From: Desulfurococcales archaeon
GTDB taxonomy: Archaea > Thermoproteota > Thermoprotei_A > Sulfolobales > NBVN01
Assembly: GCA_023255955.1 (NCBI GenBank)
Contig: JAGDWD010000007.1
Span: forward strand, 71,929-135,928
DNA length: 64,000 nt
Direction: 5' to 3'
The first letter of the stretch is position 1; every line of letters starts with the position of its first letter. Of the stretch, positions 1-54,641 are shown in pieces. The notes below the pieces were generated by a model. That model had not been told where the DNA came from and searched no databases. It worked only from the letters and a program-made list of their open reading frames with translations. A program made the position numbers and the translations under genes.

Positions 1-79
1 TATCCTTAACTCCTCTCTTAACTAGCTCGTAAGCTATGAAGAGACCGCTTATACCCGCCCCGACGATTAACACCTTCAT
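1..79 (-). CDS. FAD-dependent oxidoreductase, 5' end only (the gene runs off the window start). It is probably the dehydrogenase (beta-type) subunit of the adjacent proline/sarcosine-dehydrogenase-like complex.
   Basis: The reverse complement of 1-79 reads MKVLIVGAGISGLFIAYELVKRGVKD, a GxGxxG dinucleotide-binding start. Its ATG (79-77) overlaps the TGA of ORF 76-369 in an ATGA junction. Confidence 0.6.
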   Translation of the reverse strand, partial: MKVLIVGAGISGLFIAYELVKRGVKD

Positions 80-369
80 TTCTTAACACCCCTTAACACT
101 AACTTAGTGGGTATGGGGACTATCGGTGGTCTAACTTTGTAGTTAGCTAACACCTCACCCAGACTCTTCCCAGTAGCTCTAGCAAATATTCGGGCAGCTA
201 TCATTATGCAGCTCCTTCCCTGACATGGCCCGAAACCTAATCTCAGGTACCTCCTGAGGAGCTCGAAGTCGTCGATACCCATCTCTATGGCCTTCATTAG
301 ATCATCCAGTGTCACATCATTGCACCTACAGATTATTATAGTACCCTTCTTAGCTACCTCTCCACCCAT
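76..369 (-). CDS. Small BFD-like [2Fe-2S]-binding subunit
   Basis: The 97-aa product has Cys pairs CRCN and GPCQGRSC, typical of BFD-like 2Fe-2S domains. It is translationally coupled to both neighbours. Confidence 0.6.
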   Translation of the reverse strand: MGGEVAKKGTIIICRCNDVTLDDLMKAIEMGIDDFELLRRYLRLGFGPCQGRSCIMIAARIFARATGKSLGEVLANYKVRPPIVPIPTKLVLRGVKK

Positions 370-848
370 ATGGCTCTCACCTCCATACCTAAACCCTTGG
401 GGGTCTTAACTGTTACTACATAGGTCTTATTCCTCTCCCAAACCCTTGTTACTACCCCCTTCCCCACTCTCTCACCGTGTTTATTCAATAGAACAACCTC
501 CTCACCGACCTTAGGTGCTGGCAGGAACTCGTGTGGTACGGTAACGTAATCTGCGTCTTCCTTGGATAGGTCTACTACAAATGCTGCGAGACCTGGACAG
601 ACTGCTACGCATACACCACAACCGGTGCATTTATCCCAGTTTACTTTCGGGAGATCTATTAATCTCTCCATCGTTATGGCCTTGGTCGGACAATATGGGA
701 CGCATATATTACACGGTATCATCTCAGGACACTCAAGCACTACTACAGGACCTTTTCTAAGCCTCCACTCCGGTGGTAGGAGTCCTAGCGCGCTGAGATC
801 CTCTAACCCTACTACACCAGTTTTCCTAAATCCCTGAACAGCAGCCAT
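354..848 (-). CDS. 4Fe-4S dicluster ferredoxin-domain subunit
   Basis: Two CxxCxxCxxxCP-type motifs are present (CNICVPYCP, CTGCGVCVAVCP). It overlaps ORF 76-369 by 16 nt. Confidence 0.65.
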   Translation of the reverse strand: MAAVQGFRKTGVVGLEDLSALGLLPPEWRLRKGPVVVLECPEMIPCNICVPYCPTKAITMERLIDLPKVNWDKCTGCGVCVAVCPGLAAFVVDLSKEDADYVTVPHEFLPAPKVGEEVVLLNKHGERVGKGVVTRVWERNKTYVVTVKTPKGLGMEVRAIWVER

Positions 849-854
849 GTCGCA

Positions 855-2291
855 TCACCCAAACGAAATGGGAGGTGGGAACTCTACCCTAAGCTTATCC
901 ATCTCCTCCCTAGAGACAGTCACAGACTCCTTACCTTTCCTAGCTCTAGCTAGTAGTGGTGATGCTCTGTAAACATCCCAGAGGAATCTTATCAGCTTAT
1001 CCATCTCCTCACGGGCTTTCGACGCCTTCGAGGACTCAACAAGTTTAGTAGCTATTGAGAGGGCAGCTATTTTCCCCTCAATGATAGCTGTAGTCGCTTC
1101 CTCTATACCGGCGGAGTCCCCAGCTATATAGAGATTGGGTACCGAGGTTTCGAGGTCCAGAGTTCTCAGTGGTACAAGTCCACCGAGCTCCGGAGACCAC
1201 CTAGCTACAGCCCCACACTGCATAGCGAACCTGGTGTCCGGCTCTAAGCCTACAGCTAGGAGTACTAGGTCCACATCAAATTCCTTCTCAGTCCCCGGTA
1301 CCGGGTTGAATTTCTCGTCTACTTCTACGACAACAGCTTTCTCTACCCTACCGTTACCACTAACCTCCTTAACTGTGTGTCTAAGTAATATCGGTATCCC
1401 ATACCTCCTGATCTTAGCCGCATGCACGAACCAGCCTCCTATCTCTGGGAGCACCTCAACAACAGCTTCGACCTTAACCCCTGCCTGCAGTAGCTGGTAA
1501 GACACTATCAACCCAACGTTACCTGAGCCCACGACTAGAGCTCTCTCGCCCGGCTTAACCCCGTACTCGTTCATGACTGTCTGAGCCCCGCCAGCTCCTA
1601 TAACTCCAGGTAGGTCATTGTTGACGAAGTCGAGGTACCTCTCCTGAGCACCTGTAGAGGCCAACAACGCCTTGGGTTTAACAAAGTAGTGAGCCTCCTT
1701 ACTAGCTACACCCACAATACCCCCTCTAAAAGCTCCGTAAGCTACAGACTCTAGTAGAACCTTAATCCTGGGGTTACTTGAGATTCTCTTCACGTAGTCC
1801 TCAGCTATCTGAAAACCTCTCATACCACCGAAGAGGTCAACACTCCCAAAGAACTTGTGGGTCTGTTTAAGTAGTTGGCCACCTAGTTTGAAGTGCTCGT
1901 CAACTAAGACGACGTCGAGTCCGAACTCAGCAAGTGTGAGGGCTGCTGATAGACCTGCCGGACCTCCTCCAACGATTAGAACATCAGTATCAATTCTGAC
2001 CTCAGGTAGCTCTGAAAGCTCTACCGACTCGCTAGCTACAGGGGAAGCCCACCCCCTCTGTCTCTCAACCCTCATACCCTCCCTAACCGGCTCCCTACAT
2101 GTCTTAGTGTTGGGAACTCCATCGACTATCATGAAGCAGCTACTGCACTTACCGATCATGCAGAAGAGTCCTCTGGGTCTTACTAGAGACGAGCTCCAGG
2201 AGAGGGAGTCAAATCCAGCAGCGTAGAGGGCTACAGCAACACTCTCACCTTCGTATGCTTCGACTGGTTGTCCTTCGTAGTAGAAGGTCAC
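855..2291 (-). CDS. NAD/FAD pyridine-nucleotide-disulfide oxidoreductase with an N-terminal 2Fe-2S domain (alpha-type subunit, sarcosine oxidase alpha / archaeal PDH1 alpha-like)
   Basis: The N-terminus (GESVAVALYAAG...CMIGKCSSCFMIVDGVPNTKTC) is followed by two Rossmann motifs (VLIVGGGPAGLSAA, ALVVGSGNVGL). Confidence 0.7.
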   Translation of the reverse strand: MTFYYEGQPVEAYEGESVAVALYAAGFDSLSWSSSLVRPRGLFCMIGKCSSCFMIVDGVPNTKTCREPVREGMRVERQRGWASPVASESVELSELPEVRIDTDVLIVGGGPAGLSAALTLAEFGLDVVLVDEHFKLGGQLLKQTHKFFGSVDLFGGMRGFQIAEDYVKRISSNPRIKVLLESVAYGAFRGGIVGVASKEAHYFVKPKALLASTGAQERYLDFVNNDLPGVIGAGGAQTVMNEYGVKPGERALVVGSGNVGLIVSYQLLQAGVKVEAVVEVLPEIGGWFVHAAKIRRYGIPILLRHTVKEVSGNGRVEKAVVVEVDEKFNPVPGTEKEFDVDLVLLAVGLEPDTRFAMQCGAVARWSPELGGLVPLRTLDLETSVPNLYIAGDSAGIEEATTAIIEGKIAALSIATKLVESSKASKAREEMDKLIRFLWDVYRASPLLARARKGKESVTVSREEMDKLRVEFPPPISFG

Positions 2292-2490
2292 TTTTCTACC
2301 TCGATGGAAAGTTAGAATGGGATGTTCCAGTATACGTCTATCAACCGGCGATTCTAATCACCAAACTTATAATGCAGTAGCCCTAACTAAAAGTTTTAGG
2401 TGTAGTTTAGATTTAATTAAATACAGTTACACTTAAAAAAGTAAAACATATATATATCTCGGTATATATAATTAAGTGAGGTATCTATCT

Positions 2491-4285
2491 ATGACATCCA
2501 AAAACCCCTACTTCCTTAGTTGCTAAAACTGCTGAGAAGGTCTGGAGTAGCTTTGCATTATTGATGACTGCTGTTGGATGATCTGTAGGCTCCGGTAACT
2601 ATTGGAGGTTCTCCTGGAGAGCTGCTAACTACGGAGGAGGTAGCTTCCTATTGACCTACCTAATATGGCTAATAGCTAATAATAGTCGCCTTCCCACTAG
2701 CCGTGGCGGAGTACGCTATTGGGAAGCTAGGGCAGGGAGGTCCTCTACACGGCCCATACAACCTAGTTGATAGACATAAGAAGCTAGCGTCCTTCGGAGG
2801 TATGTGGATGGCTTGGGCTGACTTCATGATTATGTGCTATTACTGGGTAGTTGTCGGTTGGATATTCTACTACATGCTCCATGCTCTCGCTGCCACCTTC
2901 TTCGCCTCGGACTTCGATGCCATGTCCTTCTGGCAGTCCTTCGGCTTTACTCCACTATCTGCCGGTATCGGGATCTTAATGATGGTACTAAGCATCTTGG
3001 TCACAGCCTTCGGAGTGAAGGGTATAGGTACGGTATGCAGGTTCATGTTCCCGGTGCTGTTCATACTCACAATGATCCTAGCAATCTATGTACCTACCCT
3101 ACCCGGGGCTGAGAAGGGTTTGGAGTTCTATATGATTCCGAGAGTGGAGGCTCTGGCTGATCCTGCTACCTGGATGCAGTCCCTATCACAGGTAATATGG
3201 AGCGTGGGGATCGCTTGGGGCTTCTTCATATGCGCTGGACAGTGGATGAGACGTAATGACGATGTAACCCTAACCGCGTTCGGTAACGTTGTGAACGACA
3301 CAGCAGTAGCTTGGATGGCTGGTACTGCGATAATACCTCTAATATTCGCACTCTCAGCTACCCCATACGAGGACATAAAGAAGGCTGGTACCGGTCTAGC
3401 TTTCGTAGTACTACCGTTTGTCCCTAGATGCTCGTTGATGTGTGTCTATGTTCGTTCATCACATCTAGGGACTTCCACCTCGCTCGCATGGATCTACCTA
3501 TCCCTGCGGGTCGTGGGTGGCTGTCGAGCTCAACGGCACGCGGGACACATCTACACCTAACCCCGCAGAGCTCGGAGCACTGCTCCCATTACTCAGCGGG
3601 GTATCCAAGCTATCTACAGGAATGGAGTTAATGAGCTTAACACATAACCCCAGAGCACAGCAACCCTAAAAACCATAAACACAGAGACCACTAATCAAAA
3701 ACAGAACAGCCCCAGCTATTTAGGAAGATGGGTGCTGCCGGATATGTAGCTGCGGTGTTCTTCTTCGTAGCCTTCTGGTTTGCTGCCTTCACCTCCCTGA
3801 TAACTATACATGAGGTAGCTATGAGACCTCTCAAGGACTTCGGTTTAAAGACCTCACACGCAGCCCTCATTACCGGTATTCTTGGTATAATTGGTGGTAT
3901 TCCAACTGCATTCAGTGACGCTTGGTTAGACTACTACGACACTGTGTGGGGTGTTGCGGGGCTTGCTGTGGGGCTGATCTTCATAGCTCTGATAACTTCG
4001 TACTTCACTGACGTGACTAAGGTTAGGCGCGGGCTGATGGACATGGACATAAAGCCGTTCATAAGGCTTGGGAGATGGTGGGACTACATAGTTAAATTGA
4101 ATATTGTGATACCAGCACTGTTCTTCGGTTGGTGGATAGTTTACTGGGAATGGATAAGAGGCTGGGGTGCAGGAGCTCACACATACTACACGTTCCCAGG
4201 TATGCTAATACTTATAATAGGTGGCGCGATAATCTACTATATAACCAGCAAGTCCATAGAGAAGCAAACGACTGGAGGTAGGTGA
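2491..4285 (+). pseudogene. Sodium-dependent transporter of the NSS/SNF (LeuT) family, disrupted by several lesions
   Basis: The pieces together spell a full-length NSS protein. AEKVWSSFALLMTAVG*SVGSGNYWRF is TM1 with the GxGN motif and an in-frame TGA at 2578-2580. ATG 2491 is out of frame by one nt across an A5/C4 run. A second 1-nt frame change lies near 2675-2690. ORF 2703-3560 covers the middle of the protein. A 296-bp insertion follows, then ORF 3728-4285 (FFFVAFWFAAFTSLITIHE and onward). Confidence 0.8.
3423..3718. other. 296-bp insertion inside the NSS pseudogene; nature unknown (mobile or intron-like)
   Basis: Upstream coding ends ...GLAFVVLPFV and downstream coding resumes FRKMGAAGYVAAVFFF. 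Removing exactly 296 nt joins the two frames and reproduces the LeuT spacing ([20 protein letters not shown]). The 5' half is GC-rich with hairpins and the 3' ~100 nt is C/A-rich. Confidence 0.55.
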
Positions 4286-4575: not shown

Positions 4576-6501
4576 TCATAGTTTCTTCCTCGCAATTTTG
4601 TAGGTAGTGTAAGTTACTAACGGAATCGTTACAGCTAGTCCAAGTAGCTCTGGTAGCCCCCTCATGAATACGGTAATCAGGGAACTCACAGCTAGTAGGA
4701 GCCTCGTTGAGAGGTCTACATACTTATTGCTGTGGAAGACTCCGTAGGCAGCTGCTTCCAGCCCCATTATCGCGATAGTTATTTCGAGGCCCGTTAGGAT
4801 CTGGAAGAGGCTGGGCTCCAGTACTAGCTCAGGCTTTAGAGGTGTTACTAATGCCAGTATAGGCATTCCTATACCTAGCTTGACTAGCTCCTTAAGAACC
4901 GATGTGAAGGATACTCTAGCTACTCTCGATATAGTGGCTGCCGATACGGACATAGGCGGGGCAAACTCTGAATGTACTCCTAGGAAGAATGCTGTATATT
5001 GTGCTGCCCAGGCTTTAACACCTAGCCTCATAAGAGCTGGCACTACTATTGGGTAGACTATCACGTAAGTCCCTAGAGGCGGTACCCCCATCCCCACTAT
5101 GTAACCAAAGAAGTAGGAGAGTAATGTAACTACGTAGAGATTCCCAGCACCGAAGCTAACTATAGCGGTACCGAGCTTCATGGAGAGCCCGGTAACTGTG
5201 AAGAGAGCTTTCAGTATCCCGAGTAGGGCTAGAAGGAGAGCGAGATTAGCTGTTTCAGCGACGAAGAATTCTAAGCTCTTAATAAGCTTCGTTCCCAGAT
5301 CCATAATTATACCCGGAGCTCCACCCCTCCTACTTACGTAGAGGCTTGCAGCTATCGCACCAGCTAACACCACAGCCGCAGCTCTGATAGCTGCTAGCGG
5401 TGCGTAGATCCAGGTAGCCATTAAAATCACCAGTATCGCTATACCGGCAACAAATAGACCGAGGTTGGTGTAGTCATACCAGCTCAGAGATCTTGTCGTC
5501 TGAGGAGTTACCTCCCTGACCTTAACAGTCCTAACGGAGATGAGGTATATGGCAAAGGCCAGCCCAGCGATGTAAGCTAGTGCTGGGACGAATCCCCTTA
5601 TCATGACGTCGAAGTATGATACCCCCAGAGCGTCCGCCATGACGAACGCGGCAGCACCCATAACGGGGGGCATTAGCTGAGCACCAATACCAGTCGCTGC
5701 GGCCATAGCTGCCGCAACCGTTAACGGCACACCTAGGCTCTGGACTATGGGCACTGTTAGACTACCTACAGTAGCTGTGGCAGCTCCTGCACTACCCGTG
5801 ACCATACCTACGGGTATTCCTACTAGGACGTTCGTTTGGGGGATCAATATGGGGGATCGAAGCTTTGAGAGTACTATTCTGTTAGTAGAGTCCACGAGGC
5901 CGAAGCCGCTCAAAATCCCGACAAAGAGCATGAAAGCGCTTATTACTGTTACAGCTAGCTGTGAGAGGCTTTCAAAGACCCCGGTAGAGAAGTCGACACT
6001 GAGCGAAGCTATGAGTCTCGTATAGGTTATACCTGGATGTCCTAGAATCCCTGGGAAATAGCGCCCGTAGAGGGCGTTGACTAGGAAAAAGAGAACGATG
6101 GCAAATATTATCGGATACTTGACGGCCCCGAACCAGAGGACTACAAGGGCTATCAAGGCCCCGGCTAGTAGGTCTGTAGAGTTATAGAAGCCCATTCTAA
6201 CGGAGACAAGGTCCCAGAAGTTACTGTATATGTAGTACCCTGAAGCAAGTGATACTAGTACGAAGACCGTGCCAGCAGCTAGGTTAGCATACCTGTTCCT
6301 GAGCCTCGGGATCAACGGATCACTCTTGTAAATAGAGTCCACTACCCAGACAGTTATCGAGAGAGGGATCATTATGATTACGAATCTCGTAGCTCCTTCC
6401 CAACCTGTTGCGAAATAGTAAAGTATTAGGATGGCGTAGACAGTCATTAGGATCGCTCTTAGAAAGTATAAAAACTTAGATCCAGTAGCTCGAGGTCTCA
6501 C
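4576..6501 (-). CDS. TRAP transporter fused permease (4TM/12TM fusion, TAXI-type system)
   Basis: It is a 641-aa polytopic membrane protein lying directly downstream of a TAXI-type binding protein gene. Confidence 0.8.
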   Translation of the reverse strand: MRPRATGSKFLYFLRAILMTVYAILILYYFATGWEGATRFVIIMIPLSITVWVVDSIYKSDPLIPRLRNRYANLAAGTVFVLVSLASGYYIYSNFWDLVSVRMGFYNSTDLLAGALIALVVLWFGAVKYPIIFAIVLFFLVNALYGRYFPGILGHPGITYTRLIASLSVDFSTGVFESLSQLAVTVISAFMLFVGILSGFGLVDSTNRIVLSKLRSPILIPQTNVLVGIPVGMVTGSAGAATATVGSLTVPIVQSLGVPLTVAAAMAAATGIGAQLMPPVMGAAAFVMADALGVSYFDVMIRGFVPALAYIAGLAFAIYLISVRTVKVREVTPQTTRSLSWYDYTNLGLFVAGIAILVILMATWIYAPLAAIRAAAVVLAGAIAASLYVSRRGGAPGIIMDLGTKLIKSLEFFVAETANLALLLALLGILKALFTVTGLSMKLGTAIVSFGAGNLYVVTLLSYFFGYIVGMGVPPLGTYVIVYPIVVPALMRLGVKAWAAQYTAFFLGVHSEFAPPMSVSAATISRVARVSFTSVLKELVKLGIGMPILALVTPLKPELVLEPSLFQILTGLEITIAIMGLEAAAYGVFHSNKYVDLSTRLLLAVSSLITVFMRGLPELLGLAVTIPLVTYTTYKIARKKL

Positions 6502-21961: not shown

Positions 21962-22816
21962 TTTCTTTCCTCAACTTTACTGAGTCTCGAATGGATTTAT
22001 ATATTGAGGTATAACTGTCTTACGATCTAATAAACAGGTTTCCCTATAAGACAAGCCTGGTAGTTTAATAAAAAGTTGCAGACCAGCAAACGCATTAAAA
22101 TTTATAAGAAAGGTTCTTGGTATTACGCTGAAACACATGCTAAATATGCTTCTCTACACAGCCTATATTCAAAGAATTCGATATCCCGATCTCTTAGTTT
22201 CGTTTTATCTCTAGATACTAGTTCTCGTTGGTCTACGTTTGCTTACCGCACTTAGAGACATTTATTTTACCTTCAAGGATCCATGAACCCCCATGGTATT
22301 TATGTGGTTAAGTCGGCGACACTGTTCCTATCTGCTGATACTCCACCGAGCCCAGGCTGTTGCTTTATTACCTAGGCAGACTCTGCGGGAAGATGCGGGA
22401 ACGGAACCCATAAACCTAACGCCTAGTAATCGATGAGGATACAGTCTCATAACACTATAATACTATCTATTTACGATGAATCATTTATAATTTATGCTAG
22501 CCATATCTACGCATTAGTGGAGGAATATAGCCTTCCATATCTTTATCTTGGGGTCTAGCGTTATCGTTAGGCTATCTACGACTTTAAGTAGAAGACGTTA
22601 TAAACTTGCGAGGAGATAGAGCGAAAGACACTAATGTGGGGGTAGTAAACTCAACACGAAGTTAAGCCTATGATTTATGATATGTTTAAGCATCTAGGTA
22701 ATGATTTATTCGACAACAGCTGCAGTCCGAGTTCTGAATAGGATAAGGATAATAAGCTGGAGACTAGCCAGAGCTAAACTCTAGAATTAATATCTTAGGT
22801 GTAGAAACCTGTCTGA

Positions 22817-23197
22817 GTGGGGTTAGAAGTGAGCTCTAATAAGGTAAAACTAGCTAGGTACTTTGGTTATCTGTACCTGGAGGCAGATGTTGACACGATA
22901 TTAAAGATCTTGAAGACCCTTAGAGATAAGAGAGGTTTTAGGGAGGATATAGAGGATTCTATAAGGATACTAGAAAACTTCGATGCTTATTACGAGCTCA
23001 TGCGTAAGAAATACAAAGAATATATATCTCCAAGAAAAAACGAGGCTGACATGATTTCTGGGGCTGTGACGATAGACAAGATAAAACTAGAACATGATAA
23101 GCAGAGAAAAGCGACCATAGTGTTTGACAAGAGGGTAAGACAGGAAGACATAGTAAATATAATTAAGGAACTTAACCTAGAGCTCGTAGAATCCTAG
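22817..23197 (+). CDS. Hypothetical protein
   Basis: The ORF is 126 aa, with coding-like Lys/Glu-rich composition. I recognise no motif. Confidence 0.35.
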   Translation: MGLEVSSNKVKLARYFGYLYLEADVDTILKILKTLRDKRGFREDIEDSIRILENFDAYYELMRKKYKEYISPRKNEADMISGAVTIDKIKLEHDKQRKATIVFDKRVRQEDIVNIIKELNLELVES

Positions 23198-23299: not shown

Positions 23300-23686
23300 T
23301 TGGGTGTAACTGAAAAATCTTTCAGGTATGTTCTTAAACTGGACGAGAAAGGAAGGATAACTATTCCTCAAGTAGTTAGGGATGCTTTAGGGCTTGAACC
23401 AGGTATGTTTGTTGAGTTAGTGATTGACAGAAGTTCGAGGGTAATAGTTGTGAGGCCCGTGGCCTCGGGGATTATAGCCACGTATAAAGTTAGCTTAGAT
23501 AAAAGGAGTGATGTCGTAAGTCTAGTGTCTTCTGTGATTGAGGAGGGATCTGACTTAAGGTATCTAGAGTGCGGGGAGTCCGAATGTCTCTTGAGAGTCT
23601 TTCTGTTGGACACATTAATGGCTGAGAAACTCGCTGAAAAACTTCGGAGTAGGGGTCTTAACGTCATAGAATATTCGGTCAGATAG
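23300..23686 (+). CDS. AbrB/SpoVT-type DNA-binding protein with a C-terminal ACT-like domain
   Basis: LDEKGRITIPQVVRDALGLEPGMFVELV is a swapped-hairpin AbrB motif. It is followed by a ~70-aa beta-alpha-beta-like region. Confidence 0.6.
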   Translation: MGVTEKSFRYVLKLDEKGRITIPQVVRDALGLEPGMFVELVIDRSSRVIVVRPVASGIIATYKVSLDKRSDVVSLVSSVIEEGSDLRYLECGESECLLRVFLLDTLMAEKLAEKLRSRGLNVIEYSVR

Positions 23687-23773: not shown

Positions 23774-23902
23774 CTCTCTACGGTAGTGTAGGGCCATACC
23801 CTAAGAACAGAGAGCTCTCCAGCGTCTCGTGTCCCTGGGCCCGATACCCTGCGAGCCCACCCATAAGGTAGCTATGCTACCGGTGAGCGGGTAAGTAGAG
23901 AG
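23774..23902. ncRNA. Candidate structured RNA (GC-rich long hairpin); class unknown
   Basis: CTCTCTAC (23774-23781) pairs with GTAGAGAG (23895-23902), and GGTAG (23782-23786) with CTACC (23877-23881). The interior is ~62% GC inside a ~35-40% GC island. There is no ORF. Confidence 0.25.
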
Positions 23903-24056
23903 TTCCTAGATTCTGTAAGTAAACATAAAAGATGAGGATGAGCATCTGAAGGCAAACAGATCAGTCAAACAGAAGGAAGGTACTGGTTTATATAGAAGAA
24001 TTGAAGCTTTCGGTTGAACGATGACTTCCTAGAGGTTTCTACTTTGGTGGTAGAGT

Positions 24057-44218: not shown

Positions 44219-44327
<109 letters not shown>

Positions 44328-50913: not shown

Positions 50914-51004
50914 GGGGCCGTCGTCTAGCTTGGCTAGGATGCCAGCCTGGGGACAACCCCCGCCAGTACGCTGGTGGTCCCGGGTTCAAATCCCGGCGGC
51001 CCCA
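50914..51004 (+). tRNA. tRNA-Pro (anticodon GGG) with a 16-nt intron after position 37; no encoded CCA
   Basis: GGGGCCGTCGTCTAGCTTGGCTAGGATGCCAGCCTGGGG, then the intron ACAACCCCCGCCAGTA, then CGCTGGTGGTCCCGGGTTCAAATCCCGGCGGCCCCA. Confidence 0.9.
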
Positions 51005-54525: not shown

Positions 54526-54641
54526 TGGTGCGGGGGGTGGGATTCGAACCCACGCAGGCCTACGCCATCGGGTCTCTCACCGCGTATCTGCTGGAAGCAG
54601 TCTTAAGCCCGACCCCTTTGACCTGGCTCGGGCACCCCCGC
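54526..54641 (-). tRNA. tRNA-Leu (anticodon UAA) with a 28-nt intron after position 37; CCA encoded
   Basis: The reverse complement is GCGGGGGTGCCCGAGCCAGGTCAAAGGGGTCGGGCTTAAG, then the intron ACTGCTTCCAGCAGATACGCGGTGAGAG, then ACCCGATGGCGTAGGCCTGCGTGGGTTCGAATCCCACCCCCCGCACCA. Confidence 0.9.

Follow-up and report, generated by a model that had tools for sequence, protein, structure and literature searches.

The 64-kb window considered here (the whole stretch of DNA that was analysed, from a contig of a Desulfurococcales archaeon) carries at 2491-4285 the remains of an NSS/LeuT transporter gene, the pieces of which are spread over three translation frames and interrupted by a block of 296 nucleotides (nt). 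With a probability of roughly 0.85, we consider this block to be one copy of a non-autonomous miniature element of the IS607 transposon family. The transporter gene is dead independently of the insert; the insertion counts among several recent lesions in a gene that could be dispensed with, and is not an interruption removable by splicing. The features on which the argument turns are as follows (hyphens within motifs mark junctions).

2491-4285, plus strand: sodium-dependent transporter pseudogene of the NSS/LeuT family (PF00209), from alignment with the homologues P0001-P0021 and contig L001
2505-2508, plus strand: +1 nt frameshift in an A5/C run, CCCC here and CTC in the orthologue (L001 alignment and repair)
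2578-2580, plus strand: in-frame TGA in the region of the G-x-G-N motif of the first transmembrane segment (TM1), TGG to TGA, W30stop (L001 alignment and repair)
2668-2681, plus strand: 7-bp tandem duplication GCTAATA (2668-2674 and 2675-2681), a frameshift (L001 alignment)
3414-3711, minus strand: probable miniature IS607-family element, with a 294-nt body (3416-3709) and CC at each junction (GG on the element top strand), net insertion 296 nt (empty site in L001 and 12 or more full-length copies)
3414-3559, minus strand: right-end module, with homology to autonomous IS607 elements (their right end and tnpB-3' region), ending ...CATCTAGGGACAAACGG on the minus strand (nhmmer and alignment)
3420-3472, minus strand: terminal hairpin by folding, with an 11-bp stem GTCCCTAGATG/CATCTAGGGAC (3420-3430/3462-3472), 6 nt from the element end and kept in all copies
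3526-3546, minus strand: second hairpin, with the invariant loop AACGGCACG (plus strand) and a stem that is broken here; five of its six pairs covary across miniature and full-length elements
3561-3601, no strand assigned: central hairpin CCCCGCAGAGCTCGGAGCACTGCTCC...GCGGGG, nested as CCCCGC...GGAGC/GCTCC...GCGGGG
3620-3711, minus strand: left-end module, C/A-rich on the plus strand and G/T-rich on the element top strand, starting GGG-CTGTTCTGTTTTTGATTAGTGG, with its last 25 nt conserved in all copies

Protein searches recovered the homologues P0001-P0021, all of which are intact (490-501 amino acids (aa)) and carry PF00209, the closest named ones coming from metagenome-assembled genomes (MAGs) labelled 'Sulfolobales archaeon' and 'Desulfurococcaceae archaeon'. 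The nearest intact orthologue, P0001 (496 aa, 97% aa identity), is encoded on contig L001, where its neighbours are the same as in the window. Aligned with L001 at the DNA level, the gene proves to carry four disabling lesions, namely the three small ones listed above and the 296-nt insertion. With the three indels removed, the pseudogene is colinear with L001 over 1491 nt and differs from it by 36 synonymous and 14 non-synonymous codons, the stop included; the gene decayed recently. An earlier reading of the window, made from its letters and open reading frames (ORFs) and hereafter called the sequence-only reading, had recognised a broken LeuT-family gene, the +1 shift in the A5/C run and the TGA at 2578-2580, all of which the alignment with the intact syntenic orthologue bears out; what it took for a 1-nt shift near 2680 is in fact the GCTAATA duplication. 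Directly upstream of the transporter promoter and ATG, 71 extra nt at 2391-2461 are present in the window and in an independent assembly (L022, below) and absent from L001. This stretch is A/T-rich and partly repeats the promoter ATATATA, and the difference is either an insertion in the window or a deletion in L001.

The same contig provides the empty site, GTACTA-CCCC-AGCTATTT (in which AGCTATTT starts AGC), for comparison with the filled site of the window, GTACTA-CC-GTTTGTCCC...AGAACAG-CC-CC-AGCTATTT. Since the filled site has two C beyond the empty site, one CC lies at each junction, and the insert can be drawn as 3414-3709, 3415-3710 or 3416-3711 (a 2-nt CC ambiguity). The element is inserted antisense to the transporter, between the codons for LP and QL, and the healed peptide is VVLPQLFRKMG (...VVLPQLFRKMGAAG...), as in all orthologues. 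The empty site, one of the checks proposed with the sequence-only reading, thus exists in a relative and gives exactly the 296-bp length that had been read. The block had been placed at 3423-3718, which is 7-9 nt too far to the right, and the restored peptide had been given as LPFVFRKMG, which is not what the orthologues and the repair yield. That excision restores the protein is true only of the reading frame, which is rejoined by removing exactly 296 nt; because the three other lesions are independent of the insert, deleting it alone would not restore the transporter protein.

The insert is also not an assembly artefact, since an independent assembly from the same strain (L022, Logan SRR6311223) has the same junction: it is 100% identical to the window over positions 1-3439, reproducing the lesions as well as the left junction. 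Position 1 of L022 corresponds to window position 3439, i.e. this contig breaks 26 nt inside the element, exactly where copies of the element start to differ. A break of this sort is the kind of contig end that repeats produce, and is indirect evidence that, in the sample concerned, the element end has more than one context.

Copies of the insert were found with a 20-mer from the central hairpin, which in a scan of metagenome contigs matches several contigs of the ENA assemblies ERZ1669249 and ERZ1669248, both of hot-spring type. BLAST and a nhmmer profile identify at least 12 full-length copies in these contigs, 77-91% identical, which share the end points of the insert, as well as fragments (the metagenome matches L008, L012 and L014, only 22-27 nt long, were discarded as copies). 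The left 67 nt (window plus strand) and the central hairpin are nearly invariant among them. Most copies lie between ORFs, and those adjoining ORFs that were compared with Pfam proved to be ordinary host genes (MFS, GTPase, GHMP kinase and others). At several loci two or three copies occur within 13 kb, and about 100 kb of one genome contains 15 copies or fragments, densities that are biased upward by the fetching of DNA around matches. A search for further copies, proposed earlier for the same genome, thus gave full-length copies in other assemblies, and the suggestion of a mobile element is borne out by a repeat family whose ends fall at the insertion boundaries.

The junctions are uniform across the family. 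On the window plus strand every copy has the form (A)CC-GTTTG...AACAG-CCC, starting CC-GTTTGTCCCTAGATG and ending CAAAAACAGAACAG-CCC, and on the other strand GGG-CTGTT...CAAACGG, that is (T/G)GGG-CTGTTCTG...CTAGGGACAAACGG-T. CC is present at 13/13 left junctions, with A at -3 in 10/13, and CCC at 14/14 right junctions. The target is therefore (T/G)GGG, the ends are GG, and comparison of empty and filled sites reveals no target duplication beyond the shared dinucleotide. Directly past the right end of the element (3414), the window minus strand reads TAGTACTACGAAAGC... There are no terminal inverted repeats, as the termini do not match when the left end is aligned to the reverse complement of the right end; the best inverted similarity is sub-terminal and weak (score 11 vs 7.7±1.5, with 22/500 shuffles as good). 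The sequence-only reading was correct on the lack of inverted repeats and partly so on the lack of a clear target-site duplication: there is no true duplication, but the CC dinucleotide stands at both junctions. A classical MITE (a miniature transposable element of the inverted-repeat type) was considered and rejected, given that terminal inverted repeats are lacking and the 2-bp repeat, rather than being a target-site duplication left by a DDE transposase, is explained by the core dinucleotide of a serine recombinase; the element is MITE-like only in its small size, lack of genes and multi-copy state.

The copy number and its distribution bear on two simpler explanations of the locus. If the gene had merely decayed around a unique random or filler insertion, or the locus were an assembly chimera, one would expect what the window by itself offers, i.e. 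a gene dead through three other lesions and no second full copy of the insert within the 64 kb by BLAST. This explanation is barely credible in view of the many copies elsewhere with identical ends, the homology of the right end to IS607 elements (below) and the junction reproduced by an independent assembly. Of the dull alternative offered earlier, plain decay with a random insertion, the decay of the host gene stands, but the insert is multi-copy and IS607-homologous. The second explanation is an archaeal intron, either of the bulge-helix-bulge (BHB) type or self-splicing in the manner of IStrons, with the transporter still being made. Protein-gene introns are rare in archaea, and one here would have been noteworthy; the organism has intron-containing tRNAs, which in archaea imply a tRNA-splicing endonuclease, and exact removal of 296 nt restores the frame. 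The BHB layout consists of two 3-nt bulges separated by a 4-bp helix. It is absent at all three possible junctions, where 0-3 of the 4 central pairs and never both flanking helices can form, and no in-frame alternative BHB junction was found within ±20 nt. IS607-family IStrons exist in bacteria (bioRxiv 10.1101/2023.11.20.567912), but Rfam yields no group I/II intron or other match for the insert at E<=10, the element lies antisense to the transporter, most copies elsewhere are intergenic and three further lesions disable the gene. The intron, which the sequence-only reading had entertained and had proposed to examine by a BHB search, is thus as improbable as the unique insertion, both being ruled out by multi-copy occurrence with identical ends and by the mostly intergenic position of the copies.

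Assignment of the element to a transposon family came from comparison with full-length elements. The catalytic domain of ISC1926 TnpA, taken from a PDB alignment, was used as a query and gave 4452 TnpA homologues, and the DNA around five of these was fetched. Each fetched locus carries tnpA (MerR-type HTH and Resolvase, PF12728/PF00239) followed by tnpB (Cas12f1-like_TNB, PF07282). In nhmmer searches the miniature profile matches the right ends of 5/6 loci, on the strand opposite to the window plus strand, in elements from four sources:

L023, MAG named Desulfurococcaceae archaeon: 5769-5907, E 1.6e-17 to 8.7e-18
L024/L025, Joint Genome Institute (JGI) contigs: E about 1e-13
L028/L029, Thermocladium: E 1.7e-12
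L026, Caldisphaera, the contig ending inside the module: E 1.3e-8

For the remaining locus, L027, the right-end profile gave E=0.69, which is not significant. In the full-length elements the right end has the form ...GGAAGTCCCTAGATG(31 nt)CATCTAGGGACAAACGG, its hairpin containing the tnpB stop codon, and the matched full-length elements all end ...TAGGGACAAACGG. Several miniatures keep a relic of the TnpB C-terminus, (W)ARWKSLDVMNEH...TSI before the stop, to be compared with ARRKSLDAINKH..MSI or WARRKSLDAINKH...MSI before the stop in TnpB; in the window copy this translation (minus strand) was read by hand. The other end of the miniature bears a weak resemblance to the left ends of L024 and L023 (GG-CTGTT(T/C)TGT..TTGAT...). 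The combination of IS607-like junctions and right-end homology to serine-recombinase tnpA-tnpB elements places the miniature in the IS607 family, so that the word 'novel', used of the mobile element in the sequence-only reading, was overstated.

The published features of this family agree with the junctions described above. IS607-family elements have no inverted repeats or target duplication, have GG termini and use a GG target, with (G)GG preferred, their serine recombinase acting on a 2-bp identical core (PMC6188088). The IS607-family CboIStron has a circular double-stranded DNA intermediate and a 5'-TGGG-3' target that is also the transposon-adjacent motif of TnpB, and both its right end and its omega-RNA scaffold finish ...UCGG (bioRxiv 10.1101/2023.11.20.567912). 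The miniature resembles the family (IS607, IS1535, ISC1904/ISC1913/ISC1926; serine TnpA and TnpB) in its GG ends and target, the one dinucleotide per junction, its right end (...ACAAACGG) and the TnpB C-terminus relic, and differs in being about 300 bp long with neither tnpA nor tnpB, in a nearly invariant central hairpin not seen in the fetched full-length copies and in its high local density. CboIStron and other IStrons (IS605/IS607 elements with a group I intron) are alike in their IS607-type ends, TGGG target, ...CGG right end and position inside genes; the miniature differs from them in containing no group I intron according to Rfam and in lying antisense to its host gene.

Two other families of mobile elements must be weighed against the same junctions and homologies. 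The first is IS200/IS605, in which the insert would be a transposable element of the palindrome-associated kind (PATE), moved as single-stranded DNA by a Y1/HUH TnpA that recognises sub-terminal hairpins and inserted 3' of a short motif. SM1-SM4 of Sulfolobus are MITEs with terminal inverted repeats and target duplications. SMN1 of Sulfolobus is of similar size (320 bp) and depends on ISC1733, an element listed under IS200/605, and like SM1-SM4 and the miniature it is a small non-autonomous Sulfolobales element that interrupts genes (PMC3718332). By description, this dependence sets SMN1 apart from the miniature. A PATE would also be without terminal inverted repeats or an obvious target duplication and would have a strong sub-terminal hairpin, as here. 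We nevertheless regard such an origin as very unlikely, as the hairpin is at one end only, the other end being C/A-rich with no hairpin in the predicted folds, while the matching right ends belong to serine-recombinase (PF00239 and PF12728), not Y1, elements, and a crossover by a serine recombinase agrees with a GG at both junctions and a GGG target. The second family is IS110, the elements of which carry their own bridge RNA pairing with target and donor. The miniature shares with it the lack of terminal inverted repeats, the dinucleotide at both junctions and a structured core, and two internal motifs, AACGG (the invariant loop) and GGCTGT, show complementarity to its two ends. The bridge-RNA target of IS110/IS621 is 11-14 nt long. 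The targets of the miniature, however, share only (A)CCC and no longer recognition sequence; GGCTGT is not conserved in the second subfamily although the end is, without covariation with the ends; and the homology of the right end is to tnpA(serine)-tnpB elements, no DEDD-recombinase element sharing both ends having been seen. IS110 is therefore an even less probable source than IS200/IS605.

Under the IS607 assignment, the miniature is a deletion derivative of a tnpA(serine recombinase)-tnpB element that lost both genes and kept about 90 nt of the left end and about 200 nt of the right end, including the last tnpB codons. The serine transposase would be supplied in trans and would bind sub-terminal sequences, as the published mechanism of the family suggests. 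Excision would give a double-stranded circle, the GG core of which would recombine with the GG of a (T/G)GGG target, so that each junction keeps a single GG (CC on the plus strand of the window) and there is neither a true target duplication nor a pair of terminal inverted repeats. In the window the landing site was ...CTA-CCCC-AGC..., antisense in the transporter gene. Less certainly, the right-end module may still be transcribed, in which case a TnpB encoded elsewhere could re-cut emptied sites.

The right-end module is structured as well as conserved. Single folds give a three-hairpin layout that is common to full-length and miniature right ends, with z-scores of -4 to -4.75 for L023 and intact miniatures, -2.3 for L024 and -2.2 for the window copy. 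In an alignment of 16 right ends of miniature and full-length elements, two helices covary, one with the invariant CGUGCCGUU loop and the other being the terminal 12-bp hairpin: 92.7% of cells are paired, 10/18 pairs are changed on both sides and 0/500 shuffles are as good, with slid registers reaching 26-43%. For example, Thermocladium L028 has four terminal-stem pairs changed on both sides (GTCCCTACGCT/AGCGTAGGGAC). Among the miniatures, the second helix occurs in two compensating versions, GAGCCC/GGGCTC and GTCCCG/CGGGAC, and the hairpin of the window copy is chimeric, its 5' arm GAGCTC belonging to one subfamily and its 3' arm CGGGAC to the other, which suggests recombination or gene conversion between the subfamilies. 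The hairpin noticed at the start of the insert by the sequence-only reading is thus real and longer than the 9 bp given for it, and the nested stems CCCCGC...GCGGGG and GGAGC/GCTCC that it listed correspond to the central hairpin.

In position and homology the right-end module matches the place where omega RNAs are encoded, which lies on the tnpB strand, overlaps the tnpB 3' end and extends to the right-end boundary. We give about one chance in three to the module still being transcribed into a TnpB omega-RNA scaffold, with the flanking DNA as guide. The right-end region is also coding in full-length elements. The idea of a captured small RNA gene, raised earlier, accordingly survives in part: the structured part is homologous to the region that encodes omega RNA and two of its helices covary, but the proposed Rfam scan of the insert found no match.

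Several observations weigh against the miniature as an IS607 derivative, or against its RNA being functional. Motif regular expressions, and tblastn with ISC1926, ISC1904 and MJ0014 TnpA and L023 TnpB, detected no gene for a serine transposase or TnpB in the 64 kb of the window or in about 115 kb from the multi-copy genome, so the mobilising enzyme in those genomes is inferred, not seen. The matching full-length elements come from other lineages and share about 130-145 nt, not the whole miniature; the left end resembles those of L024 (AGG-CTGTTTTGTAGTTGATGG) and L023 only weakly (100/1000 and 24/1000 shuffles, respectively); and the central hairpin has no clear counterpart in the full-length elements fetched. 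As for the RNA, Rfam assigns no family to the insert at gathering or permissive thresholds, only tRNAs being found in the window. The plus-strand fold is rich in G-U pairs and the minus-strand consensus fold is more stable (-73 vs -49 kcal/mol), and the covarying helices are near-palindromic, which limits G-U counting as a strand test. The window copy itself, with its second hairpin broken, may be inert.

More tentatively, the miniatures might be working guide-RNA cassettes, in which a top-strand omega RNA, its guide taken from the DNA immediately past the right end, would direct a TnpB supplied in trans to re-cut emptied (T/G)GGG sites, recombination then restoring the miniature. This is a doubtful proposal that draws on the comparison with characterised systems, and under it the central hairpin would be an adaptation for expression or stability without the tnpB mRNA. 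Omega RNAs are often encoded by IS605 derivatives that lack genes, and these derivatives are believed to provide TnpB with them in trans (PMC10055086). Like the IS605 PATEs of Geobacillus stearothermophilus (PMC10055086), the miniature keeps a left end, a right end and the guide-scaffold region, and dependence on proteins in trans is predicted. The PATEs differ in belonging to a Y1/HUH system that moves single-stranded DNA, with hairpins at both ends, whereas the miniature has IS607-type ends, a GG crossover and an omega RNA that is putative.

Diverged relatives of the right-end module also occur elsewhere in the window, at two positions:

22204-22444, minus strand: second diverged relative, with its right-end module at 22204-22261 (nhmmer E=6e-8 and E=4e-5)
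23824-23957, plus strand: diverged relic of the right-end module (nhmmer E=2.5e-10; E=7e-4 with the whole-element profile)

These two relics are older than the insert, and the lineage has therefore met such elements repeatedly. They flank two small ORFs, pointing away from them (22817-23197 and 23300-23686, the latter AbrB/SpoVT-like by eye), and no tnpA or tnpB remnant was found between the two relics. The relic at 23824-23957 is closer to the full-length version of the module (..ATGAGGATGAGCATCT..) than to the miniature. Searches for the insert in other collections gave no further members: BLASTN in distant mode against phage and plasmid collections and exact patterns from the core, the hairpin and both the left and the right end, run in five scans of viral contigs, had no match, and a pattern scan of genome contigs with CCCTGCGGGTCGTGGGTGGC returned chance matches only, in Actinobacteria and other bacteria.

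Some of the fetched contigs hold further traces of related elements. L024/L025 carry, at a distance of 3.6 kb from a complete IS607 copy, a solo right-end-like module (256-391, E=1.4e-15), indicating that miniature or truncated derivatives also occur next to autonomous elements. In L023, the sequence just past the right end (5900-5925, ..ACGG-AGGTTAGTAGG) resembles the start of the element's own left end (3925-3945, ..GGGG-AGGTTAGTGTT), and this likeness may be the remnant of a tandem or circle-junction arrangement. The fetched stretch of L005 begins (1-166) with a left end in diverged form (GGGG-CTGTTTTATTTTTGGTTGG), after which comes a weak match (E=0.57) to the TnpA HTH that a stop codon interrupts; the multi-copy genome may here contain the decayed remains of a full-length element. 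The window belongs to the 291-kb JGI metagenome contig Ga0199148_1000009, and the rest of it shows traits of a hyperthermophile (a reverse-gyrase-like ORF and a thermosome) and three tRNA genes found by Rfam and missed by ARAGORN (44219-44324, 50914-51004 and 54529-54641), which at 91-113 nt presumably contain introns.

The IS607 transposon family to which the miniature belongs is already known. What is new here is the repeat family itself: its consensus, its boundaries, its (T/G)GGG target, its abundance in at least one related community genome and its covarying right-end module. No described IS607-derived miniature element in archaea was found in a limited literature search. An exactly excisable insertion is hereby settled as a matter of transposon biology and not as a new class of intron, and a previously unannotated repeat family is tied to the IS607-family tnpA-tnpB elements of Thermoproteota. 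For genome annotation, the miniature explains contig breaks and split genes in these MAGs. Scaffold-only variants that occur naturally in hyperthermophiles and show covariation could help researchers on TnpB and omega RNA to delimit the RNA. If the miniatures are indeed guide-RNA cassettes, they would correspond, for IS607 and for archaea, to what has been proposed for the IS605 PATEs, and a hyperthermophilic archaeon would harbour dozens of orphan guide RNAs parasitising a trans-acting nuclease.

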